From assembly GCF_000012905.2 (NCBI RefSeq), contig NC_007493.2, positions 840,001 to 872,000 on the forward strand: DNA of 32,000 nucleotides, in the 5' to 3' direction. This stretch comes from Cereibacter sphaeroides 2.4.1 (GTDB lineage: Bacteria > Pseudomonadota > Alphaproteobacteria > Rhodobacterales > Rhodobacteraceae). Under the pieces are notes generated by a model. The model saw only the letters and a list, made by a program, of their open reading frames with translations, did no database searches and had not been told where the DNA came from. The translations under genes were made by a program, and so were the position numbers. Shown one piece after another: positions 2,393 through 13,277 of this stretch. Within the stretch, counting starts at the first letter, position 1; each line of letters begins with the position of its first letter.

Positions 2393-3618
2393 GCCGAGCG
2401 ACCCATGCGGGAGTCGGCGAAGGGCGCGACCAGCCGGCCGCGGTCGGCGGCGCGGCGGGCGAGCATGGGGGTCGTCACGAGAACCGTGCCCTCCTCGGTG
2501 CGGCGGAACCAGCGGGCGTCCTCGTCGGGATCCTCGCCGATGACGAGACCTGCGGGCACCGAGGTGCCGGGGGCCACGATGGTGCGGGTGAGGCGCACGC
2601 CGGGCGCCACGCGCGCGCCGGGCAGCAGCACGCTCTCGTCGAGCATGGTCCAGCGGCCGGGCAGGTCCCCGCCGAGCCGCGGGGAATGAAGCGCGATGCC
2701 GCCGGTCTGCATGCGGAAGGCGAACTGGATCAGCTCGCCGGTCGCGGCCTTCATCTCGTGCTCGCTCGCCGCGATGCGCGGCGGCAGCGCGCAGGGTGCC
2801 TCGCCCGTCTGGAACTCGAGCTGTGCCAGGCGGTAGGCATCGAGCGTGCCCACGTCGCGCCAGTAGAAGTTGTCGCCCGGCACGCGGTAGGCATGGGCCT
2901 CGCCCAGGGCCACCGCGAGCGGCAGGATGTCATGGCCGAAGTCCTGCGTTGCGCCGGGGATGATCCGCAGCACCGAGGCAAGCCAGTCGAGGTCGAAGAC
3001 ATAGATCCCCATGCTGACCTGCGCCCGTCCGGGAATGGCCGGATCGGCGGGCACCACCGCGGGCTTTTCGAGGAAGCTCTCGATGCGGCCGCCTTCGCTC
3101 GTGCGCACCACGCCGAATTCCGAGGCGCGGTCGGTGGGCACCGTATCCACGGCCACCGTGGCGGAGGCGCCAGACGCACGGTGGGCCGCCACCATGTCCG
3201 CGTAATCCATCTCATAGACATGGTCGGCCGCGAGCACCACGAGCTCGCGCACCCCTTCGGACTGAAGCTCGGCGAGGTTCGCGGCCACCGCCGCGGCCGT
3301 CCCGCCATAGCCCTGAGGACTGCCCGTCACCGCGGTGCCCTCGCGCAGACGCAGGCTGCCCCCGGCGAAGCGGCTGGCCCAGCGGCTCTCGAGGTGGTGG
3401 GCCAGCGTCTCCGGGCGGTATTGCGTGGCCACGATCATCCGGGTCAGGCCCGAGCGCGCCGCATTGGCGAGGGTGAAGTCGACGATCCGCCGCGGCCCGG
3501 CGAAGGGCAGGGCGGGCTTGCATTCGCGGGACGTCAACTCATGCAGGCGGGAGCCGCGACCTCCCGCGAGGAGGACCGTAAAGGTGGTGGACAGGTCCGG
3601 CCGTTGGGCGTCGCGCAT
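2389..3618 (-). CDS. glgC: Glucose-1-phosphate adenylyltransferase-like protein (divergent GlgC)
   Basis: Nucleotidyltransferase motif LLAGGRGSRLHELT, then KPALPFAG and IVATQY, plus a C-terminal left-handed beta-helix-like region. I place the start at the internal Met (MRDAQRPDL, cat at 3616-3618), not at the ORF-track start of 3690. That gives 409 aa. Confidence 0.8.
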   Translation of the reverse strand: MRDAQRPDLSTTFTVLLAGGRGSRLHELTSRECKPALPFAGPRRIVDFTLANAARSGLTRMIVATQYRPETLAHHLESRWASRFAGGSLRLREGTAVTGSPQGYGGTAAAVAANLAELQSEGVRELVVLAADHVYEMDYADMVAAHRASGASATVAVDTVPTDRASEFGVVRTSEGGRIESFLEKPAVVPADPAIPGRAQVSMGIYVFDLDWLASVLRIIPGATQDFGHDILPLAVALGEAHAYRVPGDNFYWRDVGTLDAYRLAQLEFQTGEAPCALPPRIAASEHEMKAATGELIQFAFRMQTGGIALHSPRLGGDLPGRWTMLDESVLLPGARVAPGVRLTRTIVAPGTSVPAGLVIGEDPDEDARWFRRTEEGTVLVTTPMLARRAADRGRLVAPFADSRMGRSA

Positions 3619-4087: not shown

Positions 4088-4618
4088 TCAGGTCCGGCGC
4101 TGCCAGGCCCGCACGAGCGCCGCCGCCGCATCCGCGAGCTGCCGGCGGCTGTCCATCTCGAGCCGGGCGGCCACCGCCCCGATCCGGGCCAGCTCGCGCG
4201 TCAAGGCGCCCGCATGACCGGCCGCGGCCTCCTGTTCGGAACTCCCAGACCGCCCAAGCTCGAACTGCGAGCCGAGGAAATAGTCGGGATGCCCGATGCT
4301 GCCTCCCACGGGATGCAGGAAGAGGAGATTGTCGAACCGCTCGCCCGAGAATCGGTAGTTGCGCAGCACGACCTGCGTCTCTTGCCCCTTGGACAGCGCC
4401 TCGCGGATGTCGGCCCGCGCCTGCTCGTTCTCGCCCTCGCGCTGGAGGAACCGGCAGTTGAACCCGAGGATCCGCCCTTCGGTATAGCCGGTCATCCGCA
4501 GGAACGGAGGGTTGGCCAGCACCAGCGGCTGTTCGGACAGGGACATGTCCACCAGCGTCAGGGCCACGCCCGAGCGATCGAAGATCCCGCGGATCTTCTC
4601 GAACTGTTTTTGGTCCAT
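4088..4618 (-). CDS. Short LOV-domain blue-light photoreceptor with no fused output domain (RsLOV-like)
   Basis: 176 aa with the canonical flavin-adduct motif GFNCRFLQ. Cys55 is encoded by gca at 4454-4456. The LOV core is followed only by C-terminal helices. AGGAGG lies 8 nt upstream of the ATG. Size and sequence match my memory of R. sphaeroides RsLOV. Confidence 0.9.
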   Translation of the reverse strand: MDQKQFEKIRGIFDRSGVALTLVDMSLSEQPLVLANPPFLRMTGYTEGRILGFNCRFLQREGENEQARADIREALSKGQETQVVLRNYRFSGERFDNLLFLHPVGGSIGHPDYFLGSQFELGRSGSSEQEAAAGHAGALTRELARIGAVAARLEMDSRRQLADAAAALVRAWQRRT

Positions 4619-4689: not shown

Positions 4690-7600
4690 ATGACGGAAAT
4701 GCTTTCCGCCGCCGAATCCGCGGCCGATCGCGACCTGGTCCTTCTCGGGATCGGGGCCTCGGCCGGCGGGCTGGAGGCGTTCCAGAGCCTGCTCGGTGCG
4801 CTGAGGCCCACCGACCGGTTCGCGCTGATCCTCGTGCAGCATCTCGATCCGGAACATGAAAGCCTGCTGCCCGAGCTTCTGTCCAAGCGCACGCGGCTGC
4901 CGGTGCAGTCCATCGAGGACGGAATGGAGATCGAGAGCGGCAACGTCTATCTCATCCCGCCGGCCTTCGGCCTCGACATCCGCGGCCGGGTCCTGAAGCT
5001 CGTGCCGTTCGAGGCGCCGCGGGGGCTGCGCCGGCCCATCGACAGCTTCTTCCAGGCGCTCGCGCGCGAGCATGGCAGCAATGCGGCGGGCGTGATCCTG
5101 TCGGGCACGGGATCGGACGGATCGAACGGCGTCCGGGCGATCAAGGAGGCGGGCGGTCTCGTCTTCGCGCAGGATCCCAAGGACGCCCGCTACGACGGGA
5201 TGCCCCGCTCGGCCATCGGCACGGGGGCGGTCGATCTCGTGCTGCCTGCGGCCGAGATGATCGGCGTGCTGCGCGATTTCCACGACCGCGCCTCGGGGAT
5301 CGCGCCGACCATCGAGAGCGACGCGGAGTTCATCGAGAAGGTGGTGCGCAACGTGCGCTACCGCACGGGCCACGACTTCTCCGGTTACAAGAGCGGCACG
5401 CTCCTCAGGCGAATCACGCTGCGCATGTCGGTGCTGGGGCTTACGGAGCCCGGCGACTATCTGCGCGAACTGGTGCAGAACCGGGGCGAGGCCGATCGGC
5501 TGTTCCGTGACCTGCTCATCAATGTCACCAGCTTCTTCCGCGACCCTGCGGCCTTCGACGCGCTGGCGCGGGTGGCGATCCCCGGGATCCTCGAGGAGAA
5601 GGGCCGCGGCGACGAGCTGCGGGTCTGGGTGCCGGGCTGTTCGACGGGGCAGGAGGCTTATACGGTCGCGATGATCCTCGCCGACGCGATGACGCGGCTC
5701 GACGTGCGTGCCCGGCTCTGCGTCTTCGGGACCGACATCGACGAGGATGCGCTCGCCATCGCGCGGCGGGCGCAATATCCCAATTCCATCGCCTCCGAGG
5801 TGCCGCCGCAGTTTCTCGAGCGCTACTTCACCCCCACCCGGCACGGTTTCGAGGTGCGCGGAGAGCTGCGCGACATGGTGCGCTTCTCGTCCCAGAGCCT
5901 CGTCAAGGATCCGCCCTTCTCCCGCCTCGACCTCATCACCTGCCGCAACCTGCTGATCTACTTCAATCACGAGCTGCAGGAGCTGGCGCAGCGCGTGTTT
6001 CACTACGCGCTCCGGCCCGGCGGTTTCCTGATGCTCGGCCCCTCCGAGACGGCCAAGGCCGAGGGCGACCCCTTCGTGAATGTGGTGCCCGAGCACCGGA
6101 TCTACCGGCGCAACGATGCGCTGGCGCGTTCGCTCGACCTGCCGCGCGGCTTCCGCAGCATCTCGCTTGCCTCCGAGGCAACGCACGATGCGCTGCCCGA
6201 GCAGATCTTCGGGCTGCCCTATGCCGCGGCCGAGGCGCTGGTCGTGCGCCATGTGCCGCCGTTCCTGCTCATCGGACCGCAGGACGAGGTGACGCGCGTG
6301 GGGGCGGGCGCCGAGAGGTTCGTGCGTCTCAATCCCGGCACCGCGTCGCTCGGCATCCGCGCCTTGATCCTTCCCGAGCTCGAGCAGCCGCTGAAGCGGC
6401 TTCTGACCGGAAGCGGGCTCGCCGGCGGCAGCTTCCGCCAGACACGGGTCGAGCTTTCCCGGGACGGAGAGGCGCAGGAGGTGACGATCGGCTGCGAGAC
6501 CCTGTCGAACGGTCTGCGTCTCGTGACCTTCGGCACCATCGCCAGCCCCTCCTCCGGCTCCGCCGCGGACCCCGACACGCGGATCGTGCTCGACGAGGCC
6601 TATGTGAGCCAGATCGAGGACGAGCTCGAGGAGGCGCGCCTGATGGTGCGCACCACGGTGGAGGAACTCGAGACGTCGAACGAGGAGCTGAAGAGCTCGA
6701 ACGAGGAAATGATGTCGATGAACGAGGAGCTCCAGTCGGCGAACGAGGAGCTCTCGACCACCAACGAGGAGCTGCAGACCAAGCTTGCCGAACTTGCCGA
6801 GGTCAATGCGGACCTCGCGAACTTCATGTCCTCCACCCAGATCGCGACCGTCTTCCTCGACCGCGAGCTGCGGTTGCGCTCCTTCACCCCCGAGGCCGCC
6901 ACCTGGTTCCGCTTCGTGGAGCAGGACCGCGGGCGCGAGATCACCGACATCCGCGCGCGTCTCGATATCGGGACCATCGCCGACGTCTGCCGTCGGGTGA
7001 TGGCGGAGGGCCCGGCCGAAGAGGTGGCGATGGTCTCGACCGATGGCGAGTCCGAGGTGATCGTGCGGTTCGCGCCCTATCGCAGCGGTTCGGGCGATCG
7101 GGGCGGGGTCGTCTTCTCGATCTTCGATGTGACCGCCGTCACCCGCTTCGCCCGCGCCGCCGAGGAGGCTTCGGCCGACGCCCGCGCCAGTGCCGAGGAA
7201 ATCGAGGAACTCTATCTCGGCAGTCCCGGCGCGATGGGCCTCGTCGACCGCGACTTCCGCTATCTGCGCGCCAATCCCAAGATGGCCGATTTCAGCGGCC
7301 TGCCCAATGAGAACCTCATCGGCCGGTCGATCTCGGAGGTCCATCCCGACGTGGCGGGGCGCATGGTGGCCTCGGTCCGCCGGGTGTTCGACAGCGGCGA
7401 GCCGGTGCTGCGGCAGGTGGTGCGCGGCACGACGCCCGCCGATCCCGACGTGCCGCGCGTCTGGGAGATCGACTGGTATCCCGTCCATCGCTCGGACGGG
7501 GTGCGGGCCGTGGGCTTCAACGTCACCGACGTGACCCGGCTTCTGGAACTTCAGGCCGACCTGCGCCGCATCATGCGCGAGCTGCAGCACCGGGTGAAGA

Positions 7601-8202
7601 ACATGCTTTCGAACGTGATCGCGCTGGTCAACCGGGCGCGGCGCGAGCAGGGCGACCCGCAGGAGATCCTCGAGACGCTGGCGCAGCGGATCCGGGCGCT
7701 CGCCAACACCCACAATCTGCTCACCTCGGAAAACTGGGCCTCGACCTCGCTCAGCGACATCTTCGCGCTCGAGCTTCTGAACGTCTATGGCGAGGAGCGG
7801 GTGACGCTCCGCGGCCCCGAGATGCGGCTCAACGCCCGCGCCACGCTGAGCCTCGGCATGGTGATCCATGAACTCGCCACCAACGCGTCGAAATACGGTG
7901 CCTTCTCGCGGCCCGAGGGGCGCGTGTCGGTGCGCTGGTCGCGGGTGGACGAGGGAGAAGGCGAGGAATTCCGTCTGGTGTGGCAGGAGAGCGGCGGTCC
8001 GGCGGTAAATCCGCCCTCGCGCGAGGGTTTCGGCACGCAATTGATGCGTTCGATGGTAGAGGGCTCCTTCTACGGCAGCATCGAGAGCAACTGGGAACCG
8101 GCCGGTCTTCGCCTCGTTGTGGCCCTGCCATGGAATGCAGCAACCGAAGTGGACTATGACAGTGACCTGGACCCCCTCCGCCATGCGGATCCTCTACCTT
8201 GA
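4690..8202 (+). CDS. Multidomain sensor: CheB-type methylesterase, CheR-type methyltransferase, coiled coil, PAS domains and an HWE-family histidine kinase
   Basis: CheB-like GIGASAGG, VQH and GTGSDG. CheR-like FFRD, VWVPGCSTGQEAYT and RNLLIYF. Six NEELxxx heptads. H-box LQHRVKNMLSN (His codon 7588-7590), N-box ELATNASKYGA, and the HWE signature VWQESGGP (7981-7989). Confidence 0.9.
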   Translation: MTEMLSAAESAADRDLVLLGIGASAGGLEAFQSLLGALRPTDRFALILVQHLDPEHESLLPELLSKRTRLPVQSIEDGMEIESGNVYLIPPAFGLDIRGRVLKLVPFEAPRGLRRPIDSFFQALAREHGSNAAGVILSGTGSDGSNGVRAIKEAGGLVFAQDPKDARYDGMPRSAIGTGAVDLVLPAAEMIGVLRDFHDRASGIAPTIESDAEFIEKVVRNVRYRTGHDFSGYKSGTLLRRITLRMSVLGLTEPGDYLRELVQNRGEADRLFRDLLINVTSFFRDPAAFDALARVAIPGILEEKGRGDELRVWVPGCSTGQEAYTVAMILADAMTRLDVRARLCVFGTDIDEDALAIARRAQYPNSIASEVPPQFLERYFTPTRHGFEVRGELRDMVRFSSQSLVKDPPFSRLDLITCRNLLIYFNHELQELAQRVFHYALRPGGFLMLGPSETAKAEGDPFVNVVPEHRIYRRNDALARSLDLPRGFRSISLASEATHDALPEQIFGLPYAAAEALVVRHVPPFLLIGPQDEVTRVGAGAERFVRLNPGTASLGIRALILPELEQPLKRLLTGSGLAGGSFRQTRVELSRDGEAQEVTIGCETLSNGLRLVTFGTIASPSSGSAADPDTRIVLDEAYVSQIEDELEEARLMVRTTVEELETSNEELKSSNEEMMSMNEELQSANEELSTTNEELQTKLAELAEVNADLANFMSSTQIATVFLDRELRLRSFTPEAATWFRFVEQDRGREITDIRARLDIGTIADVCRRVMAEGPAEEVAMVSTDGESEVIVRFAPYRSGSGDRGGVVFSIFDVTAVTRFARAAEEASADARASAEEIEELYLGSPGAMGLVDRDFRYLRANPKMADFSGLPNENLIGRSISEVHPDVAGRMVASVRRVFDSGEPVLRQVVRGTTPADPDVPRVWEIDWYPVHRSDGVRAVGFNVTDVTRLLELQADLRRIMRELQHRVKNMLSNVIALVNRARREQGDPQEILETLAQRIRALANTHNLLTSENWASTSLSDIFALELLNVYGEERVTLRGPEMRLNARATLSLGMVIHELATNASKYGAFSRPEGRVSVRWSRVDEGEGEEFRLVWQESGGPAVNPPSREGFGTQLMRSMVEGSFYGSIESNWEPAGLRLVVALPWNAATEVDYDSDLDPLRHADPLP
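6661..6786 (+). repeat. Six tandem 21-bp units inside the kinase CDS, encoding a heptad (EELxxxN) coiled coil
   Basis: Units start at 6661, 6682, 6703, 6724, 6745 and 6766, each beginning gaggaRMT. Translation is EELETSN EELKSSN EEMMSMN EELQSAN EELSTTN EELQTKL. Confidence 0.85.
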
Positions 8203-8536
8203 AGACGAAGCCATCATTGCGATGGAAACGGTGGAGACGCTGCGAGACATGGGGTTCGAGCAGATCGACATGGCCTACTCCCTGCCGGCGGCCGAAAAGT
8301 TCGTGGCCGAGGCACTGCCCGACATCGCCCTGCTCGACGTGAACCTGAGCCACGGGCGGACCTCGTTCGAGCTCGGAAGCCGCCTTCTGGGCGAGGGCGT
8401 GCCTGTCGTCTTCGCCACCGGCTATGCCAGTTCCAGCCTGCCGGCCGATCCCCGGGCGACCGTCATCGAGAAGCCGGTGACACCGGCCGCGCTGGAGCGC
8501 GCGCTGAACTCCGCCGCCTGCGCCTCCGAAGGCTGA
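8183..8536 (+). CDS. Single-domain response regulator (receiver only)
   Basis: 117 aa: MRILYLEDEAII..., a phosphoacceptor context IALLDVNL, then FATGY and EKP. The start is taken at the Met at 8183, which overlaps the kinase 3' end by 20 nt. The ORF-track start of 8117 adds non-receiver residues. Confidence 0.85.
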   Translation: MRILYLEDEAIIAMETVETLRDMGFEQIDMAYSLPAAEKFVAEALPDIALLDVNLSHGRTSFELGSRLLGEGVPVVFATGYASSSLPADPRATVIEKPVTPAALERALNSAACASEG

Positions 8537-8545
8537 ACCGGAGGG

Positions 8546-8571
8546 CGCTGCCGGGAACAAGCGCGGCAGCG
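8546..8571 (+). other. Perfect 8-bp stem-loop just after the response-regulator stop
   Basis: CGCTGCCG (8546-8553), a 10-nt loop, then CGGCAGCG (8564-8571). No U-tract follows, so its function as a terminator or processing site is uncertain. Confidence 0.35.
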
Positions 8572-8622
8572 GGACGTTGAGCTTCAAAGGCGGTGGCCCC
8601 GCCGCATCGGAGGATGAAGCCC

Positions 8623-8763
8623 ATGTCCAGCGAGACCCTGTCCCTGAGCCTGACCCTCGTTGTCGCCGCGACGATCGTGGTGACCGCGATCGCCATGGCG
8701 CGCCGCGAGAAGCGGCTGGTTCCCGTCACGGTGCCGGCCCGGGTGCGTCAGCGGGGGCGCTGA
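8623..8763 (+). CDS. 46-aa single-pass membrane micro-protein (absent from the ORF track)
   Basis: Read by hand: MSSETLSLSLTLVVAATIVVTAIAMARREKRLVPVTVPARVRQRGR*. GGAGGA (8609-8614) lies 8 nt upstream of the ATG. G/C occupies 43 of 46 third positions. A hydrophobic helix is followed by a basic tail. The TGA stop shares one nt with the next ATG (TGATG). Confidence 0.7.
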   Translation: MSSETLSLSLTLVVAATIVVTAIAMARREKRLVPVTVPARVRQRGR

Positions 8764-9017
8764 TGGACCGGCTGAGCATCCTCCTCACCCTGATGACCGG
8801 AGCGGTCATCACGGGCGTCCTCGTGATCCTGTTCTTCAGCATGGGCTGGTATGGCTGGACCCCGATCGCCATCGGAGCAGGGGCCGGCATCCTCCTGTCG
8901 TGGCCGGCTGGCTACCTCATCTCGCGCCGGATCAAGCGCACCGACCCCCAATGGGACGAGAAGCGGGTCGAGCGGGTGCCCACCACGATCCCCAAGCCCG
9001 ACGCGCCGGAAGTTTAA
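8763..9017 (+). CDS. 84-aa two-pass membrane protein of unknown function
   Basis: MDRLSILLTLMTGAVITGVLVILFFSMGWYGWTPIAIGAGAGILLSWPAGYLISRRIKR... has two hydrophobic helices, high GC3, and an ATG coupled to the upstream micro-ORF. The longer 8577 start in the ORF track gives an Arg/Pro/Gly-rich extension that does not look coding. Confidence 0.7.
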   Translation: MDRLSILLTLMTGAVITGVLVILFFSMGWYGWTPIAIGAGAGILLSWPAGYLISRRIKRTDPQWDEKRVERVPTTIPKPDAPEV

Positions 9018-9078
9018 AAGCGTCTCAGGACGCTCCTGTTCCGAAGCCGTGGCGGACCACCCCTGGCCGAGATCATGA

Positions 9079-9104
9079 GGGGCGCAGCAGCGCCCCTTGG
9101 TTTT
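9079..9104 (+). terminator. Rho-independent terminator
   Basis: GGGGCGC (9079-9085), loop agca, GCGCCCC (9090-9096), then TTGGTTTT. Confidence 0.65.
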
Positions 9105-9411
9105 GGCGCCTCGAAGGGGCTTCTGGGCGCGGCCGGCCACCTCTCCAGATCGCGCCGCGGACCGGATCTGCCGACAGGGAGGCGCGGGCGGTCCTTCAGC
9201 ATCGACTTTTTCCCGCGGGCACCGGCTCCAGCCAGAGCCCGGAGTCCTTCCTCCCAACACCGTCTTGCATCCGATTGCCCGGCAGAGGTTCCGCAGCCTT
9301 GCGCTTCGCCGAGGCCTGCGAGGTTCCCGCAGGGAGAAACTTCAGGCAGGACCCTCGTGTTCCCGCGATACCGGCGTCAGTCACGCAGCGCGGATCGACG
9401 CGCGGAATCGA

Positions 9412-10869
9412 TCAGTCCAGACGCTCCAGCAGCTGTCGGGCCGCCTGAAGATCGTCCCGGAACCGCCTGCGCTCCTCGACGCGCGCGGCCTCGTCCGGCA
9501 GGCGCAGGATGTAGGAGGGATGGACCGTCACGAAGACCGGCGTCCCGTCGTCGAGCCTCTCGACCGACCCGCGCCGCTTCAGGATCCCCGCCCCCGAGCC
9601 GGTGAGCGAGGCGAGCGCCGTTGCGCCCATCGCGACGATCAGGCGGGGGCGCACCAGATCCCGCTCGAGATCGAGCCACCAGCGGCAGGCGGTCACCTCG
9701 CCCGCATCGGGCTTCTGGTGGATGCGGCGCTTGCCGCGTGGGGCGAACTTGAAGTGCTTGACCGCATTGGTGACATAGACCGATCCGCGATCGAGGCCGG
9801 CCGCTGCCGCCTCCTCATCGAAGAGCTGTCCTGCAGGGCCCACGAAGGGCCGGCCGGCCAGATCCTCGCGATCCCCCGGCTGCTCGCCCACGATCATCAT
9901 GCGCGCCGTGGCGGGTCCTTCCCCGAACACGACCTGCGTGGCATTGGCCCAGAGGCCGCAGCGCCGGCATCCTTCGGCCGCGGTCTTCGCTTCGGCCAAC
10001 GTGCCGGGCGCTGAGCCGTCGCCGGCCGCAGCCGGTCCGCCGGCCGCCGCCGCACGCTGCCGCGCCACGGCCGCCGTTCGCGCGGGCGGCTCGGTCGGCG
10101 CTGCGGCCTGCATCTCGGCCGCCCGTTCGGCCGCACCCCGGATCAGGCCCGGAATCAGCTCCGCCTCGGGCAGGTTCTTCCAGTAGCGTTTCGGCATCTC
10201 GGACTGCATCGCCTTCACCATCAGCCGCGCCGGATTGAAGATGTTGGCGTAATAGGTCCGCCACAGCTCTTCCGTTCCATCGGCGGGTGGCGCGGTGCGC
10301 TCCTCGGTCAGGGCGAAATCGAGCTGCCCTGCCACGAACCGCGCGGTAACCTCGGGCGTGACGATGGCCCAGTCCATGTCGCCGAACCGGCGGGCGAAGA
10401 AGGGCGTCGCCGCCTCCTCGACCGGATGGTCCGGCTCGAACCAGGCCGCGAAGGCGCGGCGGGGGCCCTCCGAGGGAAGCTCGCGGAAGCGGACGAAGGC
10501 GTGCATCTTGTGGATCTCGCGCCGAACCATCTTCTCCTGCGCAAGGAGCTTGCGCAGCGCGGGATCGCTCCGGTCGCCCCAGCGCAAAGTGCCGTCCGCC
10601 AGCCGCAGGAGAAGACCGTAGGCACGGCCGAACCGCTCGGGATCGGCGTGGCAGAGGGCAGTTTCCAATGAGCCGACCGCCTCGCGCGACAGCCGGATCT
10701 GGCGCGCCGGGCCCGCGGGCAGGGCGGGCAGGTCGGCAAAAAGGTCGGCTTCGCCCGCGCCCACGCGCCAGACGACGCTTTCCGCCGGAACACCCGCCTG
10801 CGCCAGCCGCCGGGCCTCGGCGCGCCAGGCCGCCACGGTTCCCAGACGCGGCAGGACCACCTCGGGCAT
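9412..10869 (-). CDS. Fusion protein: N-terminal DUF4130 / TIGR03915-like domain and C-terminal family-4 uracil-DNA glycosylase of the UdgX type
   Basis: 485 aa. The C-terminal half has CRRCGLW, motif A VGEQPGDREDL (GEQPG at 9874-9888), FVGPAG, KHFKF..RGKRRIHQKP (KRRIH at 9718-9732) and motif B HPSYILR. The ATG shares one nt with the upstream radical-SAM stop. Confidence 0.85.
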   Translation of the reverse strand: MPEVVLPRLGTVAAWRAEARRLAQAGVPAESVVWRVGAGEADLFADLPALPAGPARQIRLSREAVGSLETALCHADPERFGRAYGLLLRLADGTLRWGDRSDPALRKLLAQEKMVRREIHKMHAFVRFRELPSEGPRRAFAAWFEPDHPVEEAATPFFARRFGDMDWAIVTPEVTARFVAGQLDFALTEERTAPPADGTEELWRTYYANIFNPARLMVKAMQSEMPKRYWKNLPEAELIPGLIRGAAERAAEMQAAAPTEPPARTAAVARQRAAAAGGPAAAGDGSAPGTLAEAKTAAEGCRRCGLWANATQVVFGEGPATARMMIVGEQPGDREDLAGRPFVGPAGQLFDEEAAAAGLDRGSVYVTNAVKHFKFAPRGKRRIHQKPDAGEVTACRWWLDLERDLVRPRLIVAMGATALASLTGSGAGILKRRGSVERLDDGTPVFVTVHPSYILRLPDEAARVEERRRFRDDLQAARQLLERLD

Positions 10870-12089
10870 CAGAAGAGGCTCAACTGTTCCGGCGGCGGCA
10901 CGAAGCGCGCGCGCAGGCTGGCGTCGTCCAGCCCCTGCGGCCGCCAGCCGGGGGCCACGATGAAGGGGCGCGCCTGTTTCACCACCGCGCCCATCGCCAC
11001 CAGATGCTCGTAGCGCACCGCCCCGTGCGCCCGCGCGGCAAGGATGCGGCCCACCGTCTTGGTGCCGAAGCCCGGCACGCGCAGCAGCATCTCGCGCGGG
11101 GCGCGGTTCACATCCATCGGAAAGGCCTCGCGATGCGCCAGCGCCCAGGCGAGCTTCGGATCGACCTCGAGATCGAGCATCCCCTTGTCCGCGATCTCGC
11201 CCACCTCGAAGCCGTAGAACCGCAGGAGCCAGTCCGCCTGATAGAGCCGATGCTCGCGCAGGAGCGGCGGACGCACGAGGGGCAGCGCCTTCGAGGCATC
11301 GGGAATGGGCGAGAAGGCCGAGTAATAGACCCGGCTCAGACCGTAGTTGGCATAGAGCGTCGAGGCATTGCCGAGGATGGCTGCATCGTCCGCCCCGTCC
11401 GCTCCCACGATCATCTGCGTGGACTGGCCCGCGGGCGCGAAGCGCGAGGGTCTGCGGCCGGAGAAGCTCGGCTCGCGCGAGGCCTCGCGCTTCAGCCGCA
11501 CCTCGGCCATCGCCTTGCGGATGCCGGTGGCCGACTTCTCCGGCGCGAAGCGGTCGAGCCCGGCTTCGGTCGGCAGCTCCACATTGATCGACAGCCGGTC
11601 GGCATAGAGGCCCGCCTGCTCGATCAGCTCGGGCGCGGCGTCGGGAATGGTCTTGAGGTGGATATAGCCCCGGAAATGCTCGCGCTCGCGCAGGGTCTTG
11701 GCGATGCGCACCATGTCGGCCATCGTGTCATCGGGCGAGCGGATGATGCCCGACGAGAGGAAGAGCCCCTCGATATAGTTCCGCCGGTAGAATTCGACGG
11801 TGAGCGTCACCACCTCTTCGACCGAGAACCGCGCCCGCTCGACCCGCGAGGAGACGCGGTTCACGCAATAGGCGCAGTCGAAGATGCAGAAATTGGTCAT
11901 CAGGATCTTCAGAAGGCTGATGCAGCGCCCGTCCGGCGCATAGGCGTGGCAGATGCCGCTTCCGCCCGAGGATCCCAGCCCCTTGCCATCCTTCGAATCG
12001 CGCCGTGTGCCCCCGCTCGAGGCGCAGGAGGCATCGTATTTCGCGGCGTCCGACAGGATAGCCAGCTTGCGGGCGAGGTCTTTCTTCAT
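10869..12089 (-). CDS. Putative DNA modification/repair radical SAM protein (TIGR03916-like) with a C-terminal helix-hairpin-helix
   Basis: 406 aa. N-terminus LAILSDAAKYDASCASSGG, radical SAM CIFDCAYC (CX3CX2C, 11865-11888), and an HhH-like LLRVPGFGTKTVGRILAAR near the C-terminus. Confidence 0.85.
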   Translation of the reverse strand: MKKDLARKLAILSDAAKYDASCASSGGTRRDSKDGKGLGSSGGSGICHAYAPDGRCISLLKILMTNFCIFDCAYCVNRVSSRVERARFSVEEVVTLTVEFYRRNYIEGLFLSSGIIRSPDDTMADMVRIAKTLREREHFRGYIHLKTIPDAAPELIEQAGLYADRLSINVELPTEAGLDRFAPEKSATGIRKAMAEVRLKREASREPSFSGRRPSRFAPAGQSTQMIVGADGADDAAILGNASTLYANYGLSRVYYSAFSPIPDASKALPLVRPPLLREHRLYQADWLLRFYGFEVGEIADKGMLDLEVDPKLAWALAHREAFPMDVNRAPREMLLRVPGFGTKTVGRILAARAHGAVRYEHLVAMGAVVKQARPFIVAPGWRPQGLDDASLRARFVPPPEQLSLF

Positions 12090-12091
12090 CT

Positions 12092-12116
12092 GTTCTTAAT
12101 ATGTTCCTAGCTGTTC
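12092..12116 (-). promoter_or_regulatory. Alphaproteobacterial LexA (SOS) box, GTTC-N7-GTTC, plus a third GTTC
   Basis: GTTC at 12092-12095, ttaatat, then GTTC at 12103-12106 form a perfect direct-repeat SOS box. It reads GAAC-N7-GAAC in gene orientation. A third GTTC lies at 12113-12116 after 6 nt. The box starts 2 nt upstream of the radical-SAM ATG. Confidence 0.7.
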
Positions 12117-12124
12117 GAAAGCAA
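12096..12124 (-). promoter_or_regulatory. Sigma70-like promoter for the radical-SAM/UdgX operon, positioned for a leaderless transcript
   Basis: On the minus strand, TTGCTT (12124-12119), a 17-nt spacer, then TATTAA (12101-12096). Only 6 nt (GAACAG) separate the -10 from the ATG at 12089, and there is no Shine-Dalgarno. Confidence 0.5.
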
Positions 12125-12171
12125 GCGCAGAACCAATCATGACCGGAACGTGAAGCAGCGGCGGGCCCTCT

Positions 12172-13185
12172 TCAGGCGCGCCTTAGCTCCGGGGCAACCA
12201 CCTCGCCGATCAGCCGCATCAGGTCGCCGAAATAGCCTTCGCTCCGGGCGGGCCGCGTCGGGTCGGAGGTGACGACCACCGTGGCCTCGAGATCGGGCAG
12301 GAGGCAGACGAGCTGGCCGCCGTAGCCGCGGGCCAGTGCGATCCGCTCGGTGCCCGCGCGGCCCACGAACCAGCCGTAGCCGTAGCCCAAGCCCGAGAAG
12401 GGCGAGCGCGTCCGCGGCTCGAGCGAACGGCGCACCCAGTCGGCGGACAGGACCTGCTCCCCGTCCCACCGGCCGCCCTGGCGGACCATCTCTCCGAAGC
12501 GCAGCAGCGCCAGAGGCGACAGCGCCATTTCGTTGCCGCCGAGGTAGAAGCCCTGCGGATCCTGCGTCCAGGGCGGGATCTCGATCCCGAGCGGGCGGCC
12601 GAGCCAGTCCCGCATCAGCGCGAGCAGGCTGCGGTCCGTGGCTTCGGAGAGGGCGGCGCCGAGGATGTGGAAGCTGCCCGTGGAATAGAGCATCCGGCTG
12701 CCCGGCTCGGCCACCATCGGGCGCGACAGGGCATAGGCCAGCCAGTTCCGGCTCGAGACCCAGGCGCCGTAGTTGCCGCCCGAGGTGCGTTCGAGCCCCG
12801 CGCGCATCGTCACCAGATCCTCGAGCGTCAGGTCCCGGACGCGGGGGTCGGCCTCGGCAGGGATGAGGCCGGGCGCGACCTCGCCCAGCGTGGCCCCGAG
12901 GGCGGGCACGGCGCCCCGGTCGAGCGCCGCGCCGAGCAGGGCTGCGACGAGCGTCTTCGAGACTGACTTCACATTGACCGCGCGATCCGGAGCGGGTCCG
13001 CGCAGCGCCTCGGCCACCAGCGTTTCGCCGCCCTGCGCGACGACGATCGCATGAAGCTGGTCAAGCCCGCGCGCGGCTTCCAGCGTGGCGGCAAGGGGCG
13101 GACGGCGCGGCGCCTGCGCGCGGAGGGCGCTAGGCAGGGCGAGCGCGGCGCCGGCCGCGAGAAGAAGACGGCGGGACAGGATCAT
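12172..13185 (-). CDS. Secreted serine hydrolase of the beta-lactamase / PBP (class C-like) family
   Basis: Signal peptide [25 protein letters not shown] and an S-x-x-K motif (KSVSKT). GGAGG lies 5 nt upstream of the ATG at 13185, so that start is preferred over 13212. Confidence 0.8.
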   Translation of the reverse strand: MILSRRLLLAAGAALALPSALRAQAPRRPPLAATLEAARGLDQLHAIVVAQGGETLVAEALRGPAPDRAVNVKSVSKTLVAALLGAALDRGAVPALGATLGEVAPGLIPAEADPRVRDLTLEDLVTMRAGLERTSGGNYGAWVSSRNWLAYALSRPMVAEPGSRMLYSTGSFHILGAALSEATDRSLLALMRDWLGRPLGIEIPPWTQDPQGFYLGGNEMALSPLALLRFGEMVRQGGRWDGEQVLSADWVRRSLEPRTRSPFSGLGYGYGWFVGRAGTERIALARGYGGQLVCLLPDLEATVVVTSDPTRPARSEGYFGDLMRLIGEVVAPELRRA

Positions 13186-13277
13186 GAAACCTCCGGGGGC
13201 TCCAGCGCACATGGCCCGCCGGCCTCCGGCATCAACCGCGCCGCCTCCTCACGATTTCGCGCGCAGCGAGGGCGGCC

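Follow-up and report, generated by a model that had tools for sequence, protein, structure and literature searches.

LexA control of the operon that joins a radical S-adenosylmethionine (SAM) gene to a gene of the UdgX family has already been published, both for the Caulobacter counterpart and for Alphaproteobacteria generally. The closest described system is the Caulobacter operon CCNA_02417-CCNA_02418 (CC2332/CC2333). Its promoter belongs to the early SOS class and carries the box GTTCTTGATTTGTTC, which has a score of 0.991, coincides with a LexA peak of 787 rpm and lies 7 bp from the coding sequence (CDS) of a 2669-bp transcription unit (PMC12700426). Mitomycin C raised expression of the operon by log2 fold changes of ~1.0-1.1 at 20 min and 1.8-2.2 at 40 min (PMC12700426). 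Here, the corresponding operon of Cereibacter sphaeroides 2.4.1 (R. sphaeroides in the literature referred to below) is described, together with a 15-bp direct repeat at its promoter that is a candidate LexA operator. Both are located in a stretch of 32,000 nt, called the window, which spans positions 840,001 to 872,000 of contig NC_007493.2 and whose own numbering is used throughout. In view of the published work, the locus is a correct but ordinary case. What is added here is the conservation of the repeat in 80 of 80 orthologous loci, a fixed distance between the -35 hexamer and the AUG, and a predicted -10 hexamer embedded in the operator.

The Caulobacter pair consists of a 1230-bp radical-SAM gene, named 'biotin synthase related', and a 1440-bp gene of the uracil-DNA glycosylase (UDG) superfamily. 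The genes of the window measure 1221 and 1458 bp, and in both organisms they overlap by 1 nt. Like the repeat of the window, the Caulobacter box is a perfect GTTC-N7-GTTC; the two differ by two bases, and the box of another Caulobacter gene, CCNA_01600, differs from that of the window by only one. The organisms belong to different orders, Caulobacterales and Rhodobacterales. Moreover, the Caulobacter box is published as GTTC repeats, with its gene on the + strand, and it may thus be inverted relative to that of the window, as in two of the orthologous loci described below.

The operon has also been linked to LexA outside the Alphaproteobacteria. In Sanchez-Osuna et al. 2021 (PMC8565304), the UDG (COG1573)/COG4277 operon is given as SOS-regulated in Alphaproteobacteria, citing da Rocha 2008, and in Verrucomicrobia, and the UDG/radical-SAM operon figures in reviews among those under SOS control in Alphaproteobacteria, Verrucomicrobia and Bacteroidetes. 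According to Sanchez-Osuna 2021 and, reportedly, Erill 2016, the COG1573-COG4277 pair of Verrucomicrobia and Bacteroidetes is likewise LexA-controlled and is read as a base-excision-type repair module, but the LexA motifs differ from that of the window, with a tandem repeat in Verrucomicrobia and a GGA-N5-TCC-type motif in Bacteroidetes. Since these motifs are quite different between phyla, the LexA link has been maintained or re-acquired with different operators. The regulon of DdaA, a WYL activator of Moraxellaceae, similarly includes radical-SAM and TIGR03915-family genes in a damage response; in this case, control is exerted by an activator instead of by LexA repression, and the cis element is unrelated.

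R. sphaeroides is the species in which the GTTC-N7-GTTC operator was first defined. The SOS boxes of this type in R. sphaeroides and rhizobia are reportedly the subject of work by Fernandez de Henestrosa in 1998 and by Tapias and Barbe in 1999. The boxes of recA, lexA and uvrA are direct repeats of the same type as that of the window. The R. sphaeroides recA and RSP_2966 sites, along with those of lexA and others, share with the window's site the second half TATGTTC (Sanchez-Alberola 2012). In contrast to the window's box, which almost abuts a start codon, the tabulated R. sphaeroides boxes lie 16-96 nt upstream of their genes. The table covers orthologues of Escherichia coli SOS genes only, and the radical-SAM/UdgX operon is absent from it (Sanchez-Alberola 2012).

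The bare tetramer repeat is not significant on its own, because the window holds two copies of GTTC-N7-GTTC where 0.46 would be expected, and this count was attained in 5 of 100 shuffles. For a more specific measure, a LexA position weight matrix was derived from 31 Caulobacter crescentus boxes under chromatin immunoprecipitation (ChIP) peaks (S6 Table, PMC12700426), with the orthologous operon excluded. The training boxes range from 15.1 to 26.9 bits, and ~64,000 window positions were scored on both strands. At 25.9 bits, the repeat at 12092-12106 ranks first among all window positions and falls at the upper end of the training range, and the best site away from the promoter reaches 12.95 bits. 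The second perfect GTTC-N7-GTTC of the window, at 5467-5481 within a CheB/CheR-PAS-HWE kinase gene, scores only 10.2 bits and was rejected as a chance occurrence. No further SOS promoter was found in the window, where a scan allowing one mismatch returned 21 sites against 16.3 expected, i.e., no enrichment. No lexA gene was identified in the scanned parts of the window; the R. sphaeroides lexA is RSP_1997 (Sanchez-Alberola 2012).

Conservation provides the second line of evidence. In total, 80 orthologous loci with 65-79% protein identity were fetched from Rhodobacterales, Rhizobiales and Acetobacteraceae, giving 81 sequences with the window. A perfect direct repeat is present within 55 nt upstream of the start in all 80 loci. 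Outside the 75-nt zone next to the start codon, the same loci contain nine matches in 555 kb, a background of 0.016 per kb that corresponds to ~0.001 expected per 60-nt zone. The flanks of the box cannot be aligned between genera, whereas the box itself is invariant. The matrix score, combined with the repeat at the same place in 80/80 loci, takes the site at 12092-12106 beyond chance. With high confidence, the radical-SAM/DUF4130-UdgX operon can be assigned this site as its LexA operator, located on the core promoter. By analogy with the Caulobacter operon, LexA binding and induction by DNA damage would be expected in C. sphaeroides itself.

On the coding strand, the box reads GAAC-N7-GAAC in 78 of the loci, as in the window, and GTTC-N7-GTTC in the other two (L040 and L045). 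In these two, the inverted box occupies the same site, 1-2 nt before the ATG, and the Caulobacter box is printed likewise; the orientation of the direct repeat relative to the promoter does not seem to matter. The gap between box and start codon amounts to 0-7 nt in 70 of 81 sequences, to 13-16 nt in nine, and to 23 or 37 nt in the remaining two. A box that abuts the start is typical of the group, as several Caulobacter SOS promoters, namely those of imuA, relB-3, bapE and uvrD, have a LexA box 0-2 bp from the CDS (S6 Table, PMC12700426), albeit in front of genes other than those of the window. Two further observations were made in this collection. In L034, from Rubellimicrobium, another perfect GAACAATACATGAAC occurs at position 4284, ~75 nt past the end of the radical-SAM match and near the expected start of the second gene, and it might be an internal or second operator. 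The contig of L014 is labelled as a metagenome-assembled genome (MAG) of an uncultured Exiguobacterium (Firmicutes); it carries a Rhodobacterales-like operon with 75% identity, GAAC-N7-GAAC and high G+C, and the label is probably a binning error in the public record.

The box lies in an 82-nt intergenic region, where it overlaps the predicted -10 hexamer and the spacer between -35 and -10. Read along the + strand, the complement of the start codon, CAT (12087-12089), is followed by ct, GTTC (12092-12095), ttaatat (12096-12102) and GTTC (12103-12106); beyond the box come ctagct (12107-12112, 6 nt), a further GTTC (12113-12116), gaa and agcaag. The - strand accordingly reads TTGCTT (12124-12119), the 17-nt spacer tcGAACagctagGAACa, TATTAA (12101-12096), GAACag and ATG. 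Counted from the A of the ATG, the box thus occupies -17 to -3, which leaves 2 nt between it and this codon. The coordinates are collected in Table 1.

Table 1. Position, strand and properties of the features at the radical-SAM/UdgX locus (window numbering).
Feature	Position	Strand	Remarks
LexA operator (alphaproteobacterial SOS box), assigned with high confidence	12092..12106	-	GAAC-atattaa-GAAC on the coding strand; GTTCTTAATATGTTC on the + strand
Predicted -10 hexamer TATTAA	12096..12101	-	inside the spacer of the LexA box; deduced from the sequence and the orthologues
Predicted -35 hexamer TTGCTT	12119..12124	-	TTG starts 35 nt 5' of the A of the ATG and 18 nt 5' of the box
ATG start codon of the radical-SAM gene	12087..12089	-	predicted transcription start at or next to 12089
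Third GTTC/GAAC repeat	12113..12116	-	precedes the box by 6 nt on the coding strand; in all probability incidental
Possible second, weaker LexA box	12081..12095	-	TTTCTTCATCTGTTC on the + strand; 18.9 bits
Gene 1, TIGR03916 radical-SAM protein	10869..12089	-	406 aa, 1221 bp; E = 4.7e-179, 595.8 bits (cutoff 343.5)
Gene 2, TIGR03915 (DUF4130)-UdgX-family uracil-DNA-binding fusion	9412..10869	-	485 aa, 1458 bp; assigned by family matches
Beta-lactamase-like gene	12172-13212	-	next gene upstream; ends 82 nt from the operon start

An initial annotation, made from the letters of the window, had named the repeat as a perfect SOS box, and its placement of GTTC-ttaatat-GTTC is exact to the base. The TTGCTT-N17-TATTAA promoter that it described as ending 6 nt before the ATG has the correct coordinates and spacings, and the third GTTC that it pointed out 6 nt further on is present, yet unconserved. 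The SOS assignment itself is supported by the matrix score, by the conservation and by the ChIP and mitomycin C data from Caulobacter. A scan of orthologous operons for the same box, which it had proposed as a check, returned the perfect repeat in every one of the alphaproteobacterial loci. Its tentative placement of a UDG and radical-SAM pair in the Caulobacter SOS regulon was also correct, as seen from the data on CCNA_02417-02418 and from PMC8565304.

The start codon is secure, because a longer N-terminus of the radical-SAM protein is blocked by an in-frame TAA within the box, 9 nt upstream of the ATG, and because the N-terminus MKKDLARKLA aligns with the orthologues from residue 1. It also aligns with TIGR03916. 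The same ATG at 12089 is called as the start in the public assemblies CP047031.1 and CP047037.1, which encode an identical 406-aa protein and likewise contain the beta-lactamase-like neighbour. In agreement with the initial annotation, which saw no Shine-Dalgarno (SD) sequence, a tetramer scan of positions -16..-4 from the radical-SAM ATG found none. The nearest SD-like tetramer is an AGGA at -19..-16, and at 16-19 nt upstream it is too far away to be a functional SD. Among the 81 sequences, the start codon is ATG in 78, and SD-like tetramers are absent from -16..-4 in 73. Leaderless mRNAs are recognised, in work on Caulobacter and E. coli, by an AUG start and an unstructured 5' end. In the minimum free energy fold of the predicted mRNA, nucleotides 1-13 are unpaired, with an ordinary overall folding energy (z = 0.09). 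A scan of 11950-12300 against Rfam at E <= 1 gave a single, meaningless match to a long non-coding RNA, and so no known RNA element accounts for the region.

When the sequences are aligned at their start codons, a TTG is found to begin at -35, -36 or -37 from the A of the ATG in 29, 11 and 19 of them, respectively, which together make 59 of 81; at other positions, the frequency is 1-4 of 81. Overall, the distance from -35 to ATG is kept in 59-69 of 81 sequences. The exact layout of the window, with 18 nt from TTG to box and a gap of 2 nt, is common to 21 loci. The TTG precedes the box by 16-19 nt in those sequences whose box overlaps the -10. A minority layout is found in ten loci (L012, L019, L036, L037, L048, L050, L052, L060, L076 and L078, at ~2960-3000 in each). 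In these, the box abuts the -35 hexamer (TTGAC-GAAC...), which follows the TTG at 5-7 nt, and an ATATAT-like -10 of its own stands beyond the box. The TTG-to-ATG distance is still 34-36 nt in this layout, such that only the operator has changed its place, with the spacing from promoter to AUG fixed. That this distance is held despite the shift of the operator would suggest selection on leaderless expression itself, and not only on LexA control.

The spacer of the box is also enriched for a TATAGT-like hexamer, more so than LexA boxes in general would prefer. Positions 6-11 of the orthologous boxes read TATAGT, TATCAT or TATAAG, and T occurs at positions 6, 8 and 11 in 89, 63 and 67% of the orthologues compared with 35, 29 and 13% of generic Caulobacter LexA boxes. 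Judged from these sequences, the box spacer seems to double as the -10. A -35 hexamer that begins 35-37 nt ahead of the ATG is the arrangement expected if transcription started at or just before the A of this codon, and the leaderless model fits accordingly. In the window, the -10 ends 6 nt before the A and the TTG lies at -35, and this geometry would put the exact transcription start at or next to 12089. Probably, the promoter under the operator drives a leaderless or near-leaderless mRNA, which would then be translated leaderlessly. For the leaderless promoter proposed in the initial annotation, the geometry is favourable, both in the short box-to-start gap and in the position of the TTG, and the start site stays a prediction. 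Leaderless mRNAs are common in Caulobacter (Schrader 2014), which fits the boxes that abut start codons.

Taken as a whole, the observations are best explained, and with considerable assurance, by a LexA operator that sits on the core promoter of a two-gene operon, whose mRNA is probably leaderless. In the proposed mechanism, the 15-bp direct repeat would serve as the operator of both genes, with the -10 hexamer TATTAA held in its 7-bp spacer and the promoter-distal half-site inside the 17-bp spacer between -35 and -10. Because the operator lies over the -10 and this spacer, bound LexA would deny RNA polymerase access to both the -10 and the start site. DNA damage would lead to RecA-stimulated self-cleavage of LexA and free the promoter. 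Transcription would begin at or within 1-2 nt of the A of the ATG at 12089 and yield an mRNA with neither leader nor SD, which would be translated via direct recognition of the 5' AUG. The second gene would be translated by coupling through the TGATG overlap. The broader proposal, that a compact module of a LexA operator with the -10 in its spacer and a transcript starting at the AUG is conserved across Alphaproteobacteria, is somewhat better than an even prospect.

Several points weigh against this interpretation. The orthologous loci are related, and hence their 80 sites do not represent 80 independent events. An A after GAAC and an A/T-rich spacer are general properties of alphaproteobacterial LexA boxes; part of the spacer conservation is therefore no evidence for a -10. 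The hexamers TTGCTT and TATTAA agree with the consensus at just 7 of 12 positions, and the -10 lacks its last T. With hexamers this weak, it is the geometry compared across orthologues, not similarity to the consensus, that carries the promoter call. A generic sigma-70 promoter and terminator scan of 11900-12400 called no promoter, a result that neither supports nor excludes one, because the rule demands the last T of the -10, which TATTAA does not have. The same scan predicted no terminator between the upstream beta-lactamase-like gene and the box, and read-through transcripts with a leader are thus possible. The literature search gave no mapped sense-strand start for the operon in any of the species that it reached, and it turned up no paper on transcription starts in R. 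sphaeroides. In Caulobacter, global 5' rapid amplification of cDNA ends under non-inducing conditions returned only antisense starts in CCNA_02417, and the coordinates in the Caulobacter operon table are those of CDSs, not of transcription starts. The direct data on LexA binding and induction come from the Caulobacter counterpart only.

These points bear on the alternatives to different degrees. If the GTTC repeats were a product of chance or the site of another regulator, the operon would not be under LexA control in C. sphaeroides. The bare repeat does occur twice in the window, as in 5% of shuffles, and the Caulobacter origin of the LexA data leaves some room for this idea. It is nonetheless very hard to reconcile with a repeat that all 80 loci keep in the same place of the promoter, where the background is 0.016 per kb, and that scores at the top of the matrix range, with a Caulobacter orthologue that has both LexA ChIP and induction data, and with the ties of the same operon to damage regulons in distant phyla; it is considered extremely improbable. 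A more serious alternative accepts a working LexA operator and assumes a leadered mRNA, starting further upstream, either at a different promoter within the 82 intergenic nucleotides or as a read-through transcript of the beta-lactamase-like gene. In this case, a short leader would contain the box, which would function as a roadblock, and the SD-less start would be translated by another route. The absence of a predicted terminator, the weak hexamers and the literature search without a mapped start all speak for a leader, as does the room for one in two orthologues. One of these is L012, with a gap of 23 nt. The other, L079 (a Bosea MAG, ~2946-3000), combines a 37-nt gap between box and ATG with a clear GGAG, the clearest SD exception in the set, and its sequence suggests a version of the operon that has a leader. 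A leadered transcript leaves unexplained why a TTG is kept at -35 to -37 across three orders and with both placements of the box while the surrounding sequence is unconserved, why a -10-like hexamer stands at the correct distance in the box spacer, and why 73 of 81 sequences have no SD. A common upstream promoter is also unlikely, as the upstream flanks differ between genera. A leadered mRNA is accordingly judged improbable.

The remaining proposal is a refinement of the LexA model and not an alternative to it. In this proposal, the main box and a TTTC-N7-GTTC at 12081-12095 would form an array of three half-sites with 11-bp phasing that extends over the start codon and binds more than one LexA dimer, with tighter or cooperative repression; the N6-spaced GTTC at 12113 or a GGTC-N7-GTTC at 12130-12144 may add to it. 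The site at 12081-12095 has the GTTC at 12092 in common with the main box, and it covers the start codon together with codons 2-3. Its score is the second best in the window and falls inside the range of bound Caulobacter boxes, and a TTTC first half is accepted in the Caulobacter sidA and relB-4 boxes (PMC12700426). True triple repeats, GAAC-N7-GAAC-N7-GAAC, which amount to two overlapping canonical boxes, exist in L016 and L075 (~2970-3000). Against such an array, the extra half-sites are unconserved in the orthologues, and an additional GAAC at N7 is present in only 2 of 79, the two loci just named. The GAAA of 12081-12095 is merely the Lys codon AAA of MKK, one-mismatch sites are not enriched in the window, and the repeat at 12130-12144 scores below the training range. 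Multi-dimer repression is consequently rated as unlikely, slightly less so than a leadered mRNA, and the status of 12081-12095 as a second LexA site, judged by its sequence, is uncertain. The N6-spaced third GTTC was rejected as a functional half-site, since it is unconserved, with an extra GAAC within 16 nt in only 8 of 79 orthologues. The repeat at 12130-12144, on the - strand, is an imperfect and oppositely oriented GGTCATGATTGGTTC just upstream of the predicted -35 with 11.0 bits, and it is probably due to chance.

The putative DNA-repair operon under the preferred LexA-controlled promoter comprises two genes, whose families are unambiguous from NCBIfam and PDB sequence matches. Gene 2 starts within the stop codon of gene 1, with an overlap of 1 nt (TGATG), which indicates an operon with likely translational coupling. 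The radical-SAM protein carries the CX3CX2C cluster motif as CIFDCAYC. Gene 2 matches TIGR03915 with 172.8 bits (E = 1e-50) and TIGR03914 with 331.7 bits (E = 2.4e-99), both above the cutoffs. For the radical-SAM partner and for DUF4130, we know of no reaction. UdgX crosslinks covalently to uracil in DNA, and the histidine of its KRRIH loop provides the covalent link. Residues 289-477 of the gene 2 product match the Mycobacterium smegmatis UdgX structures 6AJO and 6IOD (E ~4e-52), including the GKRRIH/KRRIH loop. For DUF4130, Aravind and colleagues predicted a mutagenesis-related role in partnership with radical-SAM enzymes and UDGs, and a 2026 preprint contains a predicted DUF4130/radical-SAM complex. 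The literature search yielded no paper mentioning both UdgX and radical SAM.

Beyond the UdgX stop at 9412, inspection revealed no clear terminator. Some 1.2 kb (8203-9411) lie between the end of the UdgX gene and the kinase gene, and the 170-aa open reading frame (ORF) at 8748-9260 on the - strand gave no Pfam match. The kinase gene, an ORF on the + strand at 4690-8202, encodes a single protein of 1170 aa that unites a CheB methylesterase and a CheR methyltransferase with two PAS domains and an HWE histidine kinase; it is the gene that contains the rejected repeat.

With this locus, the alphaproteobacterial SOS regulon gains one more well-supported member, and the current understanding of the SOS response is unchanged. 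The link between LexA and the radical-SAM/UdgX pair in every orthologue fetched, from 80 alphaproteobacterial species, strengthens the case for an enzyme pair that acts on DNA damage. The operon would be silent until LexA is cleaved, which indicates the conditions under which the activity of the pair should be sought. A modest addition is the conserved geometry between promoter and AUG, which predicts a leaderless mRNA. If the reading as a conserved module is true, induction would give an SD-independent, leaderless mRNA, making the operon a good case for the role of leaderless translation in the SOS response, and it would provide a defined induction condition under which the chemistry of the enzyme pair could be worked out.

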